Shown one piece after another: positions 3,707 to 52,692 of a stretch of DNA of 52,826 nt. Source of the DNA: Candidatus Saccharimonadota bacterium (GTDB lineage Bacteria; Patescibacteriota; Saccharimonadia; Saccharimonadales; JAXHNE01); the NCBI GenBank assembly GCA_034520885.1, contig JAXHNE010000007.1, forward strand, positions 1 to 52,826, written 5' to 3'. The notes under the pieces were generated by a model. That model saw only the letters and a list, made by a program, of their open reading frames with translations, did not search any database and was not told the DNA's origin. Both the position numbers and the translations under genes were made by a program. Positions within the stretch are counted from its first letter, which is position 1. Every line of letters starts with the position of its first letter.

Positions 3707-4747
3707 ATGCCTAAAAACGTGTTCGTCGGAATGAGTGGAGGCGTGGATTCGTCCGTGACCGCCGCGCTGCTAAAGGAGCGTGGTTATGACGTCACGGGCG
3801 TGTTCATGAAAAACTGGACGCAAGACTTGCCCGGGTTTCCTTGCCCGTGGAAGGAAGATTTTAACGATGCCAAACGGGTTGCCGTGCAACTGGGGATTCC
3901 GTTCAAAGTTTATGACTTTCAGGATCAGTACCGCCAAAAAGTCGTGGATTACATGATCGAGGAATACAAAGCCGGCCGCACGCCAAATCCGGATATTATT
4001 TGTAATCAAGAGGTAAAGTTTAAGCTGTTTTTTGACGCTGCGCTGGAAGACGGCGCGGAAATGATTGCCACTGGACACTACGCTAGAACAACGAATGGCA
4101 AGCTACTTACCGCCAAGGACGAAAACAAAGATCAAACGTATTTTTTGTACCGGGTTAACAAGGCGGCTTTACGAAAAACCCTGTTCCCGCTCGGGGATTT
4201 TGCCTCCAAAGATGCCGTGCGCCGTGAAGCCAAGCGGCTGGGCTTAGTGACGGCCGGTAAAAAGGACAGCCAGGGGATTTGTTTCGTAGGGAAGGTCGGT
4301 ATTCGGGAGTTTTTATCCCGGTTCGTAAAGGCGCGTCCCGGCAAAGTACTTGATGAACGCGGCCAAGAAGTGGGTGAACACGACGGGGCGATTTTTTATA
4401 CCATTGGCCAGCGAAAAGGCCTGGGTATCGGCGGCGGTCTTCCGTATTACGTTATCGGTAAGGACATGGATAAAAACGAAGTGTACGTAACGCGGGATAT
4501 CTCCAGTGACCGGCTGTGGTCGACCTCTGCCAAGCTGACGGATGCGCATTGGATCAATAATGAGCCGCCGGAAGGGGAGTATTGGTTGCGAACCCGGCAT
4601 CGTGCTCCCAAAGAATGGGTGAAGCTAATAAAGCGCGGCGGCTCGCCAACACTGCGGTTCAAGCAAAAAATCCGGGCTATCACTCCCGGCCAATCCGCCG
4701 TTTTATATGACGATGACCGGGTAGTCGGTGGCGGAATCGTGGTGTAG
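3707..4747 (+). CDS. mnmA: tRNA 2-thiouridine(34) synthase MnmA
   Basis: PP-loop GMSGGVDSSV. Conserved NPDIICN, DQTYFL and QGICFVG motifs. 346 aa. Confidence 0.93.
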   Translation: MPKNVFVGMSGGVDSSVTAALLKERGYDVTGVFMKNWTQDLPGFPCPWKEDFNDAKRVAVQLGIPFKVYDFQDQYRQKVVDYMIEEYKAGRTPNPDIICNQEVKFKLFFDAALEDGAEMIATGHYARTTNGKLLTAKDENKDQTYFLYRVNKAALRKTLFPLGDFASKDAVRREAKRLGLVTAGKKDSQGICFVGKVGIREFLSRFVKARPGKVLDERGQEVGEHDGAIFYTIGQRKGLGIGGGLPYYVIGKDMDKNEVYVTRDISSDRLWSTSAKLTDAHWINNEPPEGEYWLRTRHRAPKEWVKLIKRGGSPTLRFKQKIRAITPGQSAVLYDDDRVVGGGIVV

Positions 4748-4917
4748 GCCGGGTAGCTTGTCTCGTACCCGGAACAATGAACGCCGCTTTAAAAAAACGA
4801 CGTAGTAAGCGGTGACGTCGGTTCAAAAGGCCGCCATACCACACGACCCGGCTTCGCCCGGACGTGCGCCGTGTATGTACGCTATGCCAAACAAAAACCG
4901 CCCAAAACCGGCTAATC

Positions 4918-4926
4918 TGTTAAAAT
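4918..4926 (+). promoter_or_regulatory. extended -10 (TGTTAAAAT), probably the original alaS promoter, now separated from alaS by the GIY-YIG insertion
   Basis: Motif read directly. Removing 4938-5256 would place an ATG 10 nt downstream of it. Confidence 0.4.
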
Positions 4927-4937
4927 GGGGCGGAAGA

Positions 4938-5256
4938 TCCCGTAGTGAGCCCTTGATCACATTATGTTCTATGTTTATTTACTACAATCAGAGGAGCGCT
5001 ATAGGATATACGTCGGCAAAACGACCGATCTTAAAAGACGCGTGAAAGAACATAATGCAGGGCAAAATTCTTCGACAAAATCATACGGACCATGGACGCT
5101 TATATTTTACGAAGCTTACATAAATAGTAAAGATGCTGACAGGGGGAAAGGTACTTGAAGACGACACAAGGACGGCAAGCAATTCACAGAATGCTAAAAT
5201 GTCATCTGGAGAACTATAAAGAAATGAATTTTGCATATCAAGGATCTACTACGGGA
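4938..5256 (+). mobile_element. 319-bp mini-element: GIY-YIG ORF bounded by 20-nt imperfect terminal inverted repeats
   Basis: TCCCGTAGTGAGCCCTTGAT (4938-4957) against ATCAAGGATCTACTACGGGA (5237-5256), 16/20 complementary by eye. Lies between a promoter and the alaS ATG. Confidence 0.55.
4964..5158 (+). CDS. small GIY-YIG nuclease family protein, probably frameshifted (the -1 frame continues to TGA 5257-5259)
   Basis: N-terminal FYVYLLQS..IYVGKTTDLKRRVKEHN GIY-YIG signature. After a G5 run (5142-5146) the -1 frame reads ERYLKTTQGRQAIHRMLK, matching the C-termini of ORFs 49582.. and 50029... Confidence 0.7.
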   Translation: MFYVYLLQSEERYRIYVGKTTDLKRRVKEHNAGQNSSTKSYGPWTLIFYEAYINSKDADRGKGT

Positions 5257-7154
5257 TGACAGCTCAAGAGATTCGACGCGCTTATTTGGAGTTTTTTGAA
5301 ACCCGCGACCACGTGATTATTCCCCGTGCTTCGTTGGTGCCGACCGACGACCCGTCCACGCTATTTACCGGTAGCGGCATGCAGCCCATGATTCAGTATT
5401 TACTGGGCGAAAAGCATCCGGAAGGAGTGCGCCTTGCTGATAGCCAAGTATGTTTCCGGGCGGCGGACATTGATGACGTTGGAGACAACAAGCACACCAC
5501 CAGTTTTGAGATGCTTGGCAACTGGAGCTTGGGAGATTATTTTAAGGACGAGCAAATTCCCTGGATCGCGGAGTTTATGTTCGACGTCGTGGGGCTCGAC
5601 CCGGAGCGCGTATACGTGAGCTGCTACATTGGAAACCAAACTTATAGTATTCCGCGTGACGAACGGGCCATTGAACTGTGGAGCAAGGAGTTTGAAAAAC
5701 GCGGCATTGACCCTAAGGTCGTATCGCTGGGAAGCGCGGAAGACGGCGATAAAAAAGGCATGCAGGGCGGCCGCATTTTCTTGTATGACGGCAACGAAAA
5801 CTGGTGGAGCCGTAACGGTAACGAGGAAAACACGCTCGTGGGCGACCCGTGCGGACCGGACAGTGAAATGTTTTATGACTTCGGTGAAGAATTTCACGAC
5901 GAAACCGTGTGGGGCAAACCGCACCCGGCCAGTGACAGCCCCCGATTTTTCGAAATCGGCAATAACGTTTTCATGGGGTACCGTAAAACCGAAAACGGCT
6001 TCGAGCCGTTGGACAAACCCAATATTGATCACGGATCGGGTTTGGAGCGCATTGCGGCGGCCAGCCTCGGTGACCCGGACATTTTTAAGATTGACTTGTT
6101 ATGGCCAATTATTCAAAAACTAGAAAAATTGTCAGCGAAAACCTATGACGACCACCGCGAAGCCATGCAAGTAATCGCCGACCATCTAAAAGGCGCGGTG
6201 TTTTTAGTGGCCGATGGCGTGCGCCCCGGCAACAAAACCCAAGGGTACGTACTGCGCCGGCTGATGCGCCGGGCAATCCTAAAAGCTTTTGATTTGGGCA
6301 TTGAGCAAAACTTCGTGCAAGAAGCCGCCCCCGTGGTCGCCGAACTTTACCGCGCCGACTTCCCGGAAGTACTCAATCAGGAAGAAGAAATCATCGAGGT
6401 ACTTTTAAAAGAAGAAAAAACTTTCAAACGAACTTTGCGTAAAGGCATAAAAGAGTTTACGAAATTCGCGGACGACGGGAAGATTACGGGAAAAGAAATG
6501 TTCATGTTGTATGACACGTACGGCTTCCCGACGGAGTTGAGTTTGGAGGAAGTACAAAAACGTGAAATCACATTGTCAGATAATTGGCGCCAAGAGTTCG
6601 ACGCTGAAATGCAAAAACAGCGGGAGCGGAGCCAAACGGCCGCCAAAGGTACGTTCAAGGGCGGTCTTGGCGGGCAGAGCATGCAACACAAGAAGTACCA
6701 CACCGCGACACACCTGATGTATCAGGCACTTCGTGACGTGTTGGGCGATCACGTCGTGCAGCACGGCAGCAATATTACCGAAGAGCGGTTGCGGTTCGAC
6801 TTTTCGCATCCCGAAAAAGTGACACCGGAACAAATAGCTAAAGTCGAAGACATTGTTAACCGAGAAATTGCCAAAGATTTGCAAGTTTCGTGGGCGGAGT
6901 ATCCAACGGAAGAAGCTACCGGTAAGCTCGGTGCGCTCGGACAGTTCGGCGACCGTTACGGCGACAGCGTTAAGGTCTATTCCATGAAAGATCCCAAGGC
7001 GCCGGAAAACGAGCGGCCGTTCAGTTTTGAGATTTGCGGCGGGCCGCACGTTGACCACGCACGGCAATTAAGTGAGGGTGGAAAGAAATTCAAGATAACC
7101 AAGGAGCAGTCCAGTAGCGCGGGTATCCGGCGCGTTAAGGCCGTTTTAGCGTAA
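5256..7154 (+). CDS. alaS: alanine--tRNA ligase, compact form lacking the C-terminal C-Ala domain
   Basis: Class II AlaRS N-terminus (EIRRAYLEFFE..HVIIPRASLVP, FEMLGNWS). Editing-domain motifs HTATHLM and CGGPHV. Only 632 aa. Confidence 0.92.
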   Translation: MTAQEIRRAYLEFFETRDHVIIPRASLVPTDDPSTLFTGSGMQPMIQYLLGEKHPEGVRLADSQVCFRAADIDDVGDNKHTTSFEMLGNWSLGDYFKDEQIPWIAEFMFDVVGLDPERVYVSCYIGNQTYSIPRDERAIELWSKEFEKRGIDPKVVSLGSAEDGDKKGMQGGRIFLYDGNENWWSRNGNEENTLVGDPCGPDSEMFYDFGEEFHDETVWGKPHPASDSPRFFEIGNNVFMGYRKTENGFEPLDKPNIDHGSGLERIAAASLGDPDIFKIDLLWPIIQKLEKLSAKTYDDHREAMQVIADHLKGAVFLVADGVRPGNKTQGYVLRRLMRRAILKAFDLGIEQNFVQEAAPVVAELYRADFPEVLNQEEEIIEVLLKEEKTFKRTLRKGIKEFTKFADDGKITGKEMFMLYDTYGFPTELSLEEVQKREITLSDNWRQEFDAEMQKQRERSQTAAKGTFKGGLGGQSMQHKKYHTATHLMYQALRDVLGDHVVQHGSNITEERLRFDFSHPEKVTPEQIAKVEDIVNREIAKDLQVSWAEYPTEEATGKLGALGQFGDRYGDSVKVYSMKDPKAPENERPFSFEICGGPHVDHARQLSEGGKKFKITKEQSSSAGIRRVKAVLA

Positions 7155-42520: not shown

Positions 42521-42534
42521 TTGTTTAATCATAT

Positions 42535-44186: not shown

Positions 44187-44200
44187 TAAACACATCATAC

Positions 44201-49474: not shown

Positions 49475-49506
49475 TTGTCTGGTTGTTTGCTACAATTAAC
49501 TCCGAT

Positions 49507-49539
49507 GGCGCTGTGGCGGAATGGTAACGCAAGGGTCTG
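49507..49539 (+). repeat. displaced copy of the tRNA-Cys 5' half (positions 1-34, ending inside the anticodon)
   Basis: GGCGCTGTGGCGGAATGGTAACGCAAGGGTCTG matches 49822-49854 with one mismatch (49533). Confidence 0.85.
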
Positions 49540-49821
49540 TCGTACCTACGGTAGATCTCCCGAAGGGAGACAAAACCCCACATGTATCACGTATACGTAT
49601 TAATGAGTAAAAAAACCGGGCGTTTGTATATCGGTAGTACAGCTGATGTTGTAAATAGGCTTAGACTTCACAACAACGGTAGGGTAAAATCTACCAAGGG
49701 TTATAGACCGTGGAAGCTACTTGAGCACTCTAGCTGTGATACACGATCCGAAGCCACGAGGCTTGAGCGACATTTAAAGTCTGGACAACAGCGAGAACGA
49801 CTCAAGAAAAAGTATAACCAT
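49540..49821 (+). mobile_element. 282-bp insertion carrying only a GIY-YIG ORF, bracketed by tRNA-Cys 5'-half copies
   Basis: See the flanking repeats 49507-49539 and 49822-49854. Stable hairpin TCTCCCGAAGGGAGA at its 5' end. Confidence 0.6.
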
Positions 49822-49842
49822 GGCGCTGTGGCGGAATGGTAA
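49582..49842 (+). CDS. small GIY-YIG nuclease family protein (86 aa); the last 7 codons overlap tRNA-Cys
   Basis: YHVYVLMSKKTGRLYIGSTADVVNRLRLHN..GYRPWKLL..EATRLERHLKSGQ GIY-YIG/URI signature. Confidence 0.8.
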   Translation: MYHVYVLMSKKTGRLYIGSTADVVNRLRLHNNGRVKSTKGYRPWKLLEHSSCDTRSEATRLERHLKSGQQRERLKKKYNHGAVAEW

Positions 49843-49896
49843 CGCAAAGGTCTGCAAAACCTTTTTTTGCCGGTTCAAATCCGGTCGGCGCCTCCA
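49822..49896 (+). tRNA. tRNA-Cys (anticodon GCA), CCA encoded
   Basis: 75 nt. Acceptor GGCGCTG/CGGCGCC (one G-U pair), anticodon arm AAGGT CTGCAAA ACCTT, T-arm GCCGG TTCAAAT CCGGT. Confidence 0.9.
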
Positions 49897-49909: not shown

Positions 49910-49996
49910 GCGCGGGTGGTGGAATTGGTAGACATAGGAGACTTAAAATCTCCGGCCTAAAACGGCGTGCGGGTTCAAGTCCCGCCCCGCGCACCA
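49910..49996 (+). tRNA. tRNA-Leu (anticodon TAA), CCA encoded
   Basis: 87 nt. Acceptor GCGCGGG/CCCGCGC, anticodon arm GGAGA CTTAAAA TCTCC, long variable arm, T-loop GGTTCAAGTCC. Confidence 0.92.
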
Positions 49997-50082
49997 TTAA
50001 ACTTCGCTATCGCTTCGCTTAATTAGCTATGCACTATACCTATATTCTTAAAAGCATTTCACAAGAGGGTGCTATTTACATT
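49981..50082 (+). repeat. direct repeat copy 1: last 16 nt of tRNA-Leu(TAA) + spacer + first ~18 codons of the GIY-YIG ORF
   Basis: About 100 nt with only a few mismatches to 50366-50467 (offset 385 nt). Confidence 0.85.
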
Positions 50083-50277
50083 GGCAGTACTTCTGATTTG
50101 AAAAGGCGGATTGGTAAACATAACGCCAACCCGGACAGTAAACATGTTGATAAATATCGGCCTTGGAAAATAGAAAGTTATTTTGCTTTTTCGGATAAGA
50201 GAGAAGCTGAAAATTTTGAGCGTTATCTTAAATCAAGTTCTGGCAAATCTTTTCTAAAAAAGAGGTTGATATCATAA
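50029..50277 (+). CDS. small GIY-YIG nuclease family protein (82 aa)
   Basis: HYTYILKSISQEGAIYIGSTSDLKRRIGKHN..YRPWKIE..EAENFERYLKSSSGK signature. Confidence 0.8.
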   Translation: MHYTYILKSISQEGAIYIGSTSDLKRRIGKHNANPDSKHVDKYRPWKIESYFAFSDKREAENFERYLKSSSGKSFLKKRLIS

Positions 50278-50365
50278 AGAGGTTGATATCATACAGTTTT
50301 AAGCAAGCGATGACGGAGTTTAATAACGGCCGGAGCGAAAGGTAAGCGTAGCAAAGCGGAGTTTA

Positions 50366-50467
50366 CCCGCCCCGCGCACCATTAAACTTCGCTATCGCTT
50401 CGCTTAATTAGCTATGCACTATACCTATATTCTTAAAAGCATTTCACGAGAGGGCGCTTTTTACATT
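50366..50467 (+). repeat. direct repeat copy 2, preceded by a decayed tRNA-Leu T-arm (GCGGAGTTTACCCGCC)
   Basis: CCCGCCCCGCGCACCATTAAACTTCGCTATCGCTTCGCTTAATTAGCTATGCACTATACC.. is repeated from 49981. Confidence 0.85.
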
Positions 50468-50601: not shown

Positions 50602-52692
50602 ATGTTCCAAAAGAAAAGAACTACCAAAACCAGCAAAACCAAATCCAGCAAAACTCGTAAGCGTGCACCGGCCAAAAAAACCCGGAAAGGTTTACTGAAA
50701 AACCACAAAGGTTTTATCCCGTTGCGCGGTAAATCTCGTAAGTCAAAAAAGATAAAATTTGGCTCAAAAACTTCCAAAAAAACCAAGATGCTTGGCCTGG
50801 CTGGCGTATTGGCATTTGGCGCGGTAGGATCGTATTTATTGTTTTTTAGTTCCGCGCAAGTGGCGAACTCGAAGGTATATAAAAACGGTGTCCTGACAAA
50901 AATTGATCCATCCGGGCATACTATAACAAATACTGCTTCAGATGGTACGACCTTTGGAAGAGTTGAATTACCGGGCTTGATTGGTTATGCATGGGACTTG
51001 AGTTGGTCAAATGACGGCAGAAGGTTAGCGGTTTTCACTAAAACAGAGTCTGGACACGATGCCATGGTATTCATCTATGGCGGAGATTATACGCTGGAAA
51101 ATTCGTTTACTATACCAAGAGGAGATGACTATAATAGTGTTGGGATTGGCAGTATACAGTGGAACTCAAATGGTGATCAACTGCTTATAGGTTTAAGGAG
51201 TATAGGTTCTGGGATCGAGTCGTATGAGGCGATTATTGCCAACAAAGAAGGAAATATAACTTACAGAAATAAACTACAGCAGAATGATCACACCACATAC
51301 AGATCAGTTACTTGGATAGACCAAGGTAACAAAATTGCATATTTTGGAACTGGTGGAATTCGAACAATGTTTATTGACGGGAGTGCAGACCAGCTGGAAG
51401 TTCCGACTAGTCAGATACCAACAGCATTAGAGAGCCCAGAAGTCTTCCAGAATAGGATTTCCCTAATGCGATCTTCTAGGACGGGTGATGACGTTGCCTT
51501 TATATTCAATAATAACGTGTTTGTTATGGATACTAAGGATTTCGAGATTGAGCAAGTATCCTTTTCTGATAACGCTACTTCAGATAAACTCACCTGGTCA
51601 CCTGATGGAAAGCTCATTAATTATAGTCGACGATTAGAGGTGAGTCCAAATGCATCAAGCCAAGTTATTAACCTTTCTAAAGGAACAGATGAGGCCTTCG
51701 GAGGTCCTTTTAGTGCGGGTCACAGCTGGCGACCTATCTCCAATACCTCTCAACAAGTAGACTTCAACGGTGATGGCTTCAGCGATATATTCTTTTACGA
51801 ACCGGGCAGTGCAAAAGATAGTGTTTGGTACGGCTCTGATGGAATGAGCAGTAAGCGGCCCGCAACATTAGGACAGTTTGATGTCATTAACAGCGACAAC
51901 ACCCCAAGCATCAATGTAATCGGCACAAGCTACAAACCCATCCACGGCGACTTCAACGGTGATGGCTACACCGATATCTTTTGGTACGGCCCCGGTTCAA
52001 CCAATGACAGTATTTGGTACGGTGGCGCTGGGGATGGTGAGTTTACTCGTCATACTGCAGTGAACGTCGCCGGAAGTAACTACAACCCAGTTGCTGGCGA
52101 CTTCAACGGCGACGGCTTCTCCGACATATACTTCTATGCTCCCGGCGGAACAACCGACTACATTTGGTACGGCCAAAACAACAAAGATGGTAACTTTGAC
52201 AGTAAGCAGAAGAATATCAGTGGTGACTATAAGCCAGTGTCCGGCGACTTCAACGGCGACGGCTACGGCGATATATTATGGTATGCCCCGGGACAAGCGG
52301 CTGACTACGTTTGGTATGGAAGTGGTCAAAAGAATAACTTCACGAGTCGCCCAATAAGCGTCAACGTCAGTGCATACGAGCCATTCGGCGGCGACTTCAA
52401 CGGCGACGGCTTCTCCGACATATACTTCTATGCTCCCGGCGGAACAACCGACTACATTTGGTACGGCAAAAACAACAAAACCGGTAACTTTGACAGTAAG
52501 CAGAAGAATGTCAGGGGTGACTATAGGCCAGCATCCGGCGATTTCAACAGTGACGGCTACACCGATATCTTCTGGTACGGCCCCGGTTCAACCAACGATA
52601 GCATTTGGTATGGCGGCCCGGGAGATGTTCAGTTCGAACTGTTCACTGATGTAAATGTTGGTGGAGACGCGAAGCCGATACCTGGCAGATAA
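50602..52692 (+). CDS. large surface protein: Lys-rich N-terminal tail, TM anchor, beta-propeller-like region and six FG-GAP/VCBS-type repeats
   Basis: TM MLGLAGVLAFGAVGSYLLFF. Repeats of the form GDFNGDG[FY][ST]DI[FY][FW]Y.PG...D.[IV]WYG. 696 aa. Confidence 0.8.
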   Translation: MFQKKRTTKTSKTKSSKTRKRAPAKKTRKGLLKNHKGFIPLRGKSRKSKKIKFGSKTSKKTKMLGLAGVLAFGAVGSYLLFFSSAQVANSKVYKNGVLTKIDPSGHTITNTASDGTTFGRVELPGLIGYAWDLSWSNDGRRLAVFTKTESGHDAMVFIYGGDYTLENSFTIPRGDDYNSVGIGSIQWNSNGDQLLIGLRSIGSGIESYEAIIANKEGNITYRNKLQQNDHTTYRSVTWIDQGNKIAYFGTGGIRTMFIDGSADQLEVPTSQIPTALESPEVFQNRISLMRSSRTGDDVAFIFNNNVFVMDTKDFEIEQVSFSDNATSDKLTWSPDGKLINYSRRLEVSPNASSQVINLSKGTDEAFGGPFSAGHSWRPISNTSQQVDFNGDGFSDIFFYEPGSAKDSVWYGSDGMSSKRPATLGQFDVINSDNTPSINVIGTSYKPIHGDFNGDGYTDIFWYGPGSTNDSIWYGGAGDGEFTRHTAVNVAGSNYNPVAGDFNGDGFSDIYFYAPGGTTDYIWYGQNNKDGNFDSKQKNISGDYKPVSGDFNGDGYGDILWYAPGQAADYVWYGSGQKNNFTSRPISVNVSAYEPFGGDFNGDGFSDIYFYAPGGTTDYIWYGKNNKTGNFDSKQKNVRGDYRPASGDFNSDGYTDIFWYGPGSTNDSIWYGGPGDVQFELFTDVNVGGDAKPIPGR

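Follow-up and report, generated by a model that had tools for sequence, protein, structure and literature searches.

We describe a 319-bp block that separates the alaS gene from its promoter in a 52,826-nucleotide contig of Candidatus Saccharimonadota bacterium (JAXHNE010000007.1; the whole stretch is hereinafter called the window). The block (positions 4938-5256) consists of an open reading frame (ORF) for a small GIY-YIG nuclease framed by inverted arms, and is probably a degenerate copy of a family of autonomous mini mobile elements, each of roughly 310-340 bp, from bacteria of the candidate phyla radiation (CPR/Patescibacteria). This level of confidence applies to the explanation as a whole, namely, that the block is an insertion, that it belongs to a family, that intact elements are expressed by a translational relay, that their conserved structure plays a role, and that the copy in the window is dead. 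A first-pass annotation of this DNA had already interpreted the block as a minimal mobile element whose insertion point coincides precisely with a leaderless start, and this view is strengthened by three independent lines of evidence, the empty sites in relatives, the recurrence of the element at 20 or more host genes and the existence of ORF-less miniatures, all presented below.

Organization of the alaS locus

In the window, mnmA (3707-4747) is followed by a 508-nt gap and by alaS, the host gene of the element (5256-7154; 632 amino acids (aa); Pfam tRNA-synt_2c, E = 1.6e-107), and the mnmA-alaS-...-ftsA synteny is kept in most relatives. All features of the locus mentioned here and below are on the plus strand. 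The extended -10 box reported in the first pass is present (TGTTAAAAT, 4918-4926) and appears to be the ancestral leaderless promoter of alaS, which now would drive the element; a sigma-70 scan of the plus strand between 4600 and 5500 detected no -35/-10 pair, only extended -10 boxes. Gaps of 6-11 nt between the -10 box and the ATG had been noted elsewhere in the window; about half of its genes carry TAnnnT 4-12 nt (mostly, 6-9 nt) before the ATG, and others have GGAG/GAGG sites.

The inverted repeats bounding the segment could be refined to 21 nt each (4937-4957 and 5237-5257), of which 17 are complementary, with G.T accounting for 2 of the 4 mismatches; comparison within the family places the limits of the element proper at 4938-5256, with arms of the form TCC...GGA. 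The left arm (the 5' strand of helix P1, columns 8-28 of the covariation alignment A4 discussed below) contains the invariant core GTAGT and a conserved unpaired GA, and the right arm (the 3' strand of P1) holds AAGGA (5240-5244), a weak Shine-Dalgarno (SD)-like site 11 nt ahead of the alaS ATG, and ends with the A and T of the alaS start codon. The 9-mer TCCCGTAGT is confined to the two arms in the 52.8-kb window (0.19 occurrences expected), and a search of the window for further copies of the arm 20-mer gave no match at 3 or fewer mismatches; the arms do recur across the family.

As previously noted, GIY-YIG is the sole ORF of sizeable length between the arms (4964-5158; Pfam GIY-YIG, E = 5e-15). 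As it stands, this ORF encodes 64 aa and stops at a TGA (5156-5158), shortly after a run of five G residues (5142-5146). Continuation in the -1 frame from G5146 results in a 98-aa protein, the C-terminal part of which (5146-5259; ERYLKTTQGR...YQGSTTG, then stop) matches homologues of 96-98 aa over their full length, and the TGA of this repaired ORF (5257-5259) overlaps the alaS ATG at 5256, in agreement with the first-pass reading.

Empty sites in related bacteria

The alaS 5' end was compared among 79 relatives from Saccharibacteria for which this region was in hand. The 319-bp block is absent from all 79, and in 72 of these, TAnnnT lies 5-12 nt before the alaS ATG (with the TG extension in 59, and a spacing of 7-8 nt in 57), so that alaS starts directly after the -10 box, contrary to the concern raised in the first pass that relatives without the GIY-YIG ORF might still keep the 319-bp spacing. 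L161, the closest relative, reads gctaatctgttaaaatgg-acagtgaaat-ATGACAGCA at the alaS start, with a 12-nt spacer and no insert, and its 18-nt promoter gctaatctgttaaaatgg is identical to positions 4909-4926 of the window; L162, which is also among the closest relatives, likewise has no insert at alaS. The reciprocal situation is found at obg, which is an empty leaderless site in the window (13086) and is occupied in L107. The nearest AlaS proteins share 74% identity with that of the window among species-representative genomes and 78% in the protein collection, and no exact match is on record.

These comparisons leave practically no credibility to the view that the block is an ordinary resident small GIY-YIG gene, with an inverted repeat that arose by chance or forms a local regulatory hairpin. 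Small GIY-YIG ORFs are indeed common in CPR genomes, and the window contains two more, but relatives have no such ORF at the alaS position, the arms covary across 47 sequences, and the unit recurs at many genes together with a duplicated start codon, so that the comparative data contradict this reading.

A GIY-YIG ORF upstream of alaS was found in only one relative, L027 (Saccharimonadales); it belongs to a different subtype, and alaS keeps its own -10 box there. In this locus (2432-2816), a perfect inverted repeat of 23 nt, GAACTTGATTCAGGACCCAGTCA / TGACTGGGTCCTGAATCAAGTTC, surrounds the 96-aa GIY-YIG ORF (2505-2795), and such framing may be general for the small GIY-YIG genes of the Saccharimonadales group. 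In two other relatives, L011 and L029, the position aligned to the alaS ATG is ATA, and an ATG is located 3 nt upstream (..ggcatgATAAAT); the alaS start may have shifted by one codon in these bacteria.

The spacing between the -10 box and the ATG before the insertion was more likely 7 nt than the 10 nt assumed in the first-pass annotation, because the apparent left copy of the target duplication, AAGA (4934-4937), stands where ATGA would be expected. Furthermore, 7 nt is the modal value in the relatives, and 10 nt occurs in none of the 72.

A family of elements at gene starts

The repaired protein has 136 homologues, and more than 100 database proteins of 96-98 aa are 65-73% identical to it over 99-100% of its length, with the C-terminal F-E-Y-Q-G-S-T-T being nearly invariant among the close homologues. 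Because these full-length proteins match the repaired and not the truncated sequence, the -1 shift at GGGGG postulated in the first pass can be considered correct. The family is large: a profile search yielded 3181 clusters (at 50% identity) with E <= 1e-10.

We extracted 80 metagenome loci, which comprised 49 unique full-length elements with one and the same layout: a -10 box, 5-9 nt, ATG(N), the left arm (A)TCC-N-GTAGT-RR..., about 7 nt, ATT-ATG with the nuclease ORF, the right arm ...YY-ACTAC-N-GG, and then the ATG of the host ORF. The genes that follow the right arm are of at least 20 different kinds, including dnaG-, topA-, valS/ileS-, greA-, obg-, def- and typA-like ones. The left-hand ATG is present in 37 of the 49 copies, and in 28 of these 37, a -10 box lies 5-9 nt upstream, compared to 10% at control ATGs (p = 6.5e-21); most of the copies that lack this ATG carry its 1-nt variants (CTG, TTG, ACG).

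In an AT-rich subgroup, copies located at different genes are 85-88% identical in DNA, and in the Saccharibacteria subgroup, the synonymous sites of the ORF have diverged while both arms are essentially invariant. The dnaG start is occupied in six Saccharibacteria contigs, the DnaG proteins of which are 55-80% identical. We also looked for an identical protein in differing contexts as a sign of recent transposition, and found that protein P0087 is confined to a single locus, downstream of the RNase Y gene; a search of IMG/VR for carriage by phages detected no relatives.

The first pass had referred to two GIY-YIG ORFs at 49582 and 50029 of the window as paralogs of the alaS-linked nuclease. 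Small GIY-YIG ORFs are present at both positions, but the kinship is not close: they share just 35-39% identity with the repaired protein, and by eye, no matching arms or P2-type pairing were found around them. To judge from these comparisons, they look like members of other subfamilies.

The nuclease

In Pfam searches, the repaired protein scored 62.3 bits and the truncated ORF 55.9 bits against PF01541 (cut-off, 22.6). Across 22 homologues, Y3, Y5, Y16, G18, R26, H30, N31, E50 and E62 are invariant; the ORF of the window as it stands stops short of E62, and placing the deletion within the G-run keeps the invariant Arg60. The AlphaFold 2 (AF2) model (pLDDT 83) corresponds to a bare GIY-YIG catalytic domain, with disorder in the six C-terminal residues, which the right arm encodes. 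Given this disorder, and because the proteins of a 90-aa subfamily end before the right arm, the tail seems to be conserved as DNA or RNA rather than as protein.

The nearest solved structures are those of UPF0213 BH0048, At-HIGLE and Slx1-Slx4, with I-TevI far weaker. Although the scores are modest in both searches, phmmer retrieved 1zg2 (UPF0213 BH0048; 3.8e-6), 1ywl (3e-3) and then Slx1, and the top Foldseek matches were 7wme, 1zg2, 6sei and 4xlg, with I-TevI in the 10th place (E = 0.64). No NCBIfam model scored above its cut-off, and the AF2 model of the 98-aa protein includes no C-terminal DNA-binding domain of the I-TevI/Seg type. The element encodes no DDE, HUH, serine or tyrosine transposase, the nuclease being its only ORF. 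From sequence and model, the most economical reading is that the protein would be a structure-specific nuclease acting on the folded arms and might thereby be involved in the movement of the element.

It is very improbable that the unit is a classical free-standing homing endonuclease gene of the Seg/I-TevI kind, which has one long target and spreads by double-strand-break repair. The GIY-YIG domain itself, the occupation of the same dnaG start in six contigs, and the long duplications described below, which reach into the arm and are compatible with repair-based copying, would fit such a gene. Against this stand the occupation of at least 20 unrelated host genes, with no single long target; the size of the protein, 90-98 aa without a DNA-binding domain, with only 20.3 bits against the group-I-intron endonuclease model TIGR01453 (56 required); the proximity of Slx1 and UPF0213, rather than I-TevI, in structure; and the inverted arms, short duplications and ORF-less miniatures, which are transposon-like features.

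Conserved three-helix structure

Covariation was analyzed in an alignment of 47 sequences (A4), with 500 shuffles and slid-partner controls. Three helices are conserved. P1 is formed by the arms; P2, formed by (G)ATTATGTTC with GAACATAAT(C), encloses the nuclease start codon; and P3, of 11 bp, joins the G-Q/L-N codons with the segment just ahead of the right arm. In the window, the strands of P2 are CATTATGTTC (4960-4969), which contains the nuclease start codon (4964-4966), and GAACATAATG (5048-5057), which pairs with the former (11/11) and covers the nuclease codons E-H-N, with synonymous sites invariant family-wide, and the strands of P3 are CAAAATTCTTC (5063-5073) and AATGAATTTTG (5223-5233). 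All three helices are present in the minimum free energy (MFE) fold of the window RNA (z = -2.1), and together they form a three-way junction with linkers of 2-5 nt (2, 5 and 3).

Pairing over P1, P2 and P3 is observed in 94.8% of the alignment cells, whereas shuffles give 81.3% and slid partners 34-44%. Changes on both sides affect 26 pairs, compared to 17.0 in shuffles, and 245 cells, compared to 66. None of the 500 shuffles reached the observed values. Thus, the arms both recur and covary across the family, and the caveat of the first pass, that they might be unique to this locus or pair no better than chance, does not apply. In P3 (columns 140-150/301-311), 8 of the 11 pairs are changed on both sides. 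In P2, columns 34 and 134, which combine a non-coding base with a first codon position, always pair (GC 36, CG 7, AU 4), and columns 43 and 125 are CG in 39 sequences and UA in 6. Nine positions of the arms pair almost always, several of them by three or four pair types. By contrast, two arm positions are never Watson-Crick paired, with GA opposite CT or AG opposite TC. The conservation of this 2x2 mismatch suggests that it is in a folded form that the arms act.

Several known kinds of RNA element were considered for this structure and rejected. For both strands of 4880-5300, Rfam searches gave no match with a threshold as loose as E <= 10, which speaks against a group I or group II intron or a known ribozyme, and over the whole window at the gathering score, only tRNAs were detected. 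By eye, a hammerhead is incompatible with junction strands of 2, 5 and 3 nt, and P1 does not have the form of a bulge-helix-bulge motif. If splicing took place at the edges of the arms, several copies (L136, L114) would be left with an out-of-frame host ORF.

Target duplications and ORF-less miniatures

Direct duplications flank the arms. A duplication of 4 nt is found in 25 of 58 elements, compared to 11% when flanks are mismatched, and 41 of the 58 have a duplication of 3 nt or more, the commonest ones being TGGA, TGAA and TATG, with TGA occurring as well. With the arms read as TCC...GGA, the host ATG consists of the final A of the arm and the TG of the duplication. The intact equivalent of the window copy is the element of L136, ATGA|TCCCG...CAGGA|TGAC.

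In addition to the full-length copies, there are nine ORF-less miniatures of 57-124 nt, which share the arms and the mismatch with them and are flanked by duplications of the same kind. One miniature (L122, 785-916) is located at a leaderless ATGGA start, and others lie away from gene starts, so that at the DNA level, the target seems to be short. The restriction of the autonomous copies to leaderless starts would be best explained by selection for expression and harmlessness.

Some of the insertions form more complex arrangements. The RNase Y gene ends in a sequence (..IEFAK, stop; GCCAAGTAGTAG) that resembles an arm core; at this position, L164 carries a full element (1470-1810) with a 15-nt duplication, TTCGCCAAGTAGTAG, and L090 and L091 carry ORF-less miniatures, so that this site may be a preferred, arm-like target. 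Elements also occur in tandem: in L122 (450-916; also in L120 and L124), a full copy flanked by TAA..TAA is located 12 nt upstream of the miniature on the ATGGA start of the next gene, and at L099/L101, the L099 element is directly followed by another left arm. In L148, a solo left arm is duplicated upstream of a variant element with the core CCGTTAGAG/CTCTAACGG.

Proposed expression of intact elements

No promoter or SD site of their own was seen in the elements of the family. A mini-ORF begins at the left-hand ATG and typically encodes M-D/N-P-V-V-D/E/K-F or MDHVVSP. In 26 of 37 copies, 2-8 nt separate its end from the nuclease ATG, and the nuclease stop codon either overlaps the host ATG or precedes it by 11-25 nt (mode, 14 nt). 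In the scheme that we propose, insertion would duplicate a short target, modally of 4 nt, and autonomous copies would persist almost only where the leaderless ATG of the host is rebuilt. The host promoter would then transcribe the element; the duplicated, 5'-terminal AUG would open a mini-ORF of 3-9 codons that crosses the left arm and terminates a few nucleotides ahead of the nuclease AUG; and the nuclease and the host gene would most likely be translated by a termination-reinitiation relay, a mechanism that is plausible but unproven. P1 could be the cis-acting end structure because the miniatures retain it, and P2 and P3 would restrain translation of the nuclease, with P2 limiting free initiation on it.

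The arms could also act during RNA processing: the stem that they form in the primary transcript might be cut by RNase III, which is specific for double strands, so that the host mRNA would be freed with a very short leader or none, and this could occur alongside DNA-level mobility rather than replace it. P1, a 21-bp helix with an internal loop, joins both ends of the element and ends on the host AUG, which is partly paired in P1 in most copies (columns 8-9/335-336) and would therefore need freeing, and the miniature of L122 at a leaderless start has no ORF that could provide for coupling. The intervening sequences (IVS) of 23S ribosomal RNA (rRNA) offer a precedent (PMC4990558), and the GIY-YIG-containing insertions of CPR rRNA genes do not belong to the group I or the group II introns (PMC11270868). 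However, a cut within the stem would leave 8-12 nt of the arm on the host mRNA instead of a 5'-terminal AUG, G-U pairs are not in excess over A-C mismatches, and the conserved left ATG and the positions of the mini-ORF stop would be left without a role. We regard RNA-level removal as a serious but less likely alternative and favor the reinitiation relay.

State of the copy in the window

The copy at alaS appears to be dead, with its relay broken twice. The left start codon reads AAG (4934-4936) where the family has ATG, which makes AAGA (4934-4937) a putative degenerate duplication copy whose first three bases would be the former 5'-terminal start codon, and the ORF has lost 1 nt at the G5 run or in its immediate neighborhood, as judged by alignment to intact homologues. 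The homologues examined (the listed database matches and the metagenome copies) contain no frameshift. In the first pass, the ORF was thought to be either decaying or dependent on slippage; decay is favored because the examined homologues are unshifted and the AAG defect is not a homopolymer error. A programmed frameshift at the G-run was rejected because the examined homologues are unshifted.

In this decayed state, alaS is probably expressed from an internal extended -10-like box, TGCTAAAAT (5192-5200), which is a direct repeat of the upstream box and a candidate replacement promoter, with AAGGA (5240-5244) as a weak ribosome-binding site. This box is absent from the seven closest elements, so it was dismissed as a family feature and would be specific to this copy. 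The two other modes of alaS expression envisaged in the first pass, read-through with coupling and RNA-level removal, are also conceivable.

An alternative is that the copy is intact and active, the frameshift being a sequencing error (with a true run of six G residues), and AAG being the original flank, with no duplication. The position of the break at a G5 run, the good preservation of the rest of the ORF and of P1, P2 and P3, and the 12-nt spacer of L161, which makes 10 nt conceivable, are in line with this possibility. Nevertheless, it seems unlikely: the neighboring long ORFs (mnmA, alaS and an ftsA-like gene) are unbroken and no other broken genes were noticed in the window, the left ATG is present in 37 of the 49 family copies and mostly replaced by 1-nt variants in the others, the 10-nt spacing is not found among the 72 relatives, and a copy-specific internal -10 box is present.

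Several observations weigh against the explanation of the block as a dead copy of a mobile element with a translational relay. A homopolymer sequencing error could account for the frameshift, and a 10-nt ancestral spacing without duplication, as proposed in the first pass, is conceivable in view of the 12 nt in L161, so that a zero-duplication insertion at alaS has to be kept in mind. The window contains 9 TGNTANAAT boxes, which is no enrichment over the 7 expected by chance, and hence the internal promoter may be a chance match. The length of the duplications varies (0-8 nt counted, and 11-15 nt, reaching into the arm core, in L157, L089 and L164), which is a poor fit to a simple transposase with a fixed stagger and would also allow for a copy-and-repair mechanism. 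Mismatches of the G-U and A-C types occur at equal frequency (35 and 24 in P1, 13 and 14 in P3), so that action of the helices in RNA and in single-stranded DNA is not told apart. The end of the mini-ORF is not near the nuclease ATG in 11 of the 37 copies, and nothing SD-like precedes the host ATG in the AT-rich subfamily. Finally, mobility is deduced solely from the distribution of the elements.

Relationship to known systems

The element joins traits of REP/RAYT systems, of terminal inverted repeat (TIR) elements and their derivatives, the miniature inverted-repeat transposable elements (MITEs), of free-standing homing genes and of rRNA IVS, and fails a defining feature of each. In sequence and fold, UPF0213/YhbQ and Slx1/HIGLE are closest, with the same minimal beta-beta-alpha-beta-alpha-alpha catalytic domain and conserved Tyr, Tyr, Arg, His and Glu residues. 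However, Slx1 has the partner Slx4 and a RING/PHD domain, and UPF0213 has no assigned mobile context, whereas in the present family, conserved inverted arms surround the nuclease gene, which is located at gene starts. The T-even Seg and I-TevI genes are similarly selfish nuclease genes located beside conserved genes, and in I-TevI, RNA structure hides the start codon, as P2 would do here. Unlike the element, they encode proteins of 200-250 aa with a DNA-binding domain and one long target each, and lack inverted arms, target duplication, miniatures and dependence on a host start codon.

Like REP/BIME-RAYT (TnpA-REP) and IS200/IS605, the element has one small nuclease gene between inverted structured repeats and dispersed ORF-less hairpins, and it shares with them imperfect hairpins in which obligatory mismatches are recognition features. 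REPs have a conserved GTAG at the foot of the hairpin, which, with regard to the arm core, is a lead rather than a test. The enzyme differs, being an HUH/Y1 transposase in those systems and GIY-YIG here, the unit is less than half their size, and IS200/IS605 produce no target duplications, whereas short ones occur here. TIR insertion sequences and MITEs resemble the element in their inverted ends, short target duplications and non-autonomous miniatures, but the element has no DDE, serine or tyrosine transposase, and the length of its duplications is unfixed. The smallest autonomous insertion sequences are about 600-700 bp, well above 319 bp. The 23S rRNA IVS of Coxiella, Salmonella and Leptospira are also small inserts with ends that pair into a stem, a small ORF inside and a functional host RNA; by contrast, the element of the window is at the 5' end of a protein-coding transcript, and its excision by RNase III, which cuts the IVS, is hypothetical.

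In the full-text literature searched, we found no description of this element family, and although such absence is not proof of novelty, the family is apparently undescribed. It is quite possible, and we put this forward tentatively, that these elements represent a new class of prokaryotic transposable elements. Their sole protein would be an Slx1/UPF0213-type GIY-YIG nuclease of about 95 aa that recognizes its own folded arms (a hairpin or three-way junction with the 2x2 mismatch) rather than a long DNA sequence; the elements would produce duplications of about 4 bp and ORF-less miniatures, and would survive at positions +1 to +5 of leaderless genes by means of a borrowed promoter and AUG and a three-cistron reinitiation relay. 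If so, this would be the logic of REP/RAYT with a different enzyme, in a unit that, at about 320 bp, would be among the smallest autonomous mobile elements known, and the nuclease family, which is not known to drive transposition, would belong to a very small autonomous element whose fold of three helices is defined. Such elements would explain the abundance of small GIY-YIG ORFs in CPR/Patescibacteria, and the GIY-YIG insertions in CPR rRNA genes that are not introns may be of the same kind.

The elements would also constitute a natural experiment in 5'-terminal AUG recognition, 70S reinitiation or RNA processing that keeps essential genes (alaS, dnaG, topA and obg, among others) expressed. 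In genome annotation, such a unit would be mistaken for an "upstream gene", the promoter would be displaced and the start codon would appear twice. The copy at alaS, in its decayed state, would illustrate how a host gene regains a promoter inside a remnant, the candidate TGCTAAAAT box.

Other features of the window

The two other GIY-YIG ORFs of the window are associated with tRNA genes. The first one, of 86 aa (49582-49842), has a repeated 5' half of tRNA-Cys (49505-49539) on one side and the complete tRNA-Cys gene (49822-49896) on the other, the latter encoding the last residues and the stop codon of the ORF. The half copy is 35 nt long, is identical to 49820-49854 at 34 of the 35 positions, and begins 8 nt after TGCTACAAT (49488-49496). 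The arrangement parallels that at alaS, with a promoter, a duplicated 5' end, a nuclease gene and an intact gene, but the duplication is 35 nt long and there are no matching arms. At the second ORF (50029-50277), a 102-nt direct repeat (49981-50082 and 50366-50467, 97% identical) starts within the 3' part of tRNA-Leu(taa), crosses a spacer of 32 nt and takes in the initial 54 nt of the ORF; the second copy of the repeat opens a truncated ORF (50414...), and a 17-nt tandem duplication, AAAGAGGTTGATATCAT, is present at 50259-50292. This GIY-YIG cluster is followed by a gene (50602-52692) for a 696-aa protein with many DFNGDG(F/Y)(S/T)DI(F/Y/L)(F/W)Y repeats that are FG-GAP/VCBS-like.

The region between 39000 and 48000 has a low GC content (0.37-0.44, compared to about 0.50 elsewhere) and contains a run of short minus-strand genes with textbook leaderless promoters. 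The sequences upstream of these genes are nearly identical, with tcaaacaggactctcactaacttctttg, for example, preceding both the start at 42532 and that at 44198, and the region may be an island of paralogous genes.

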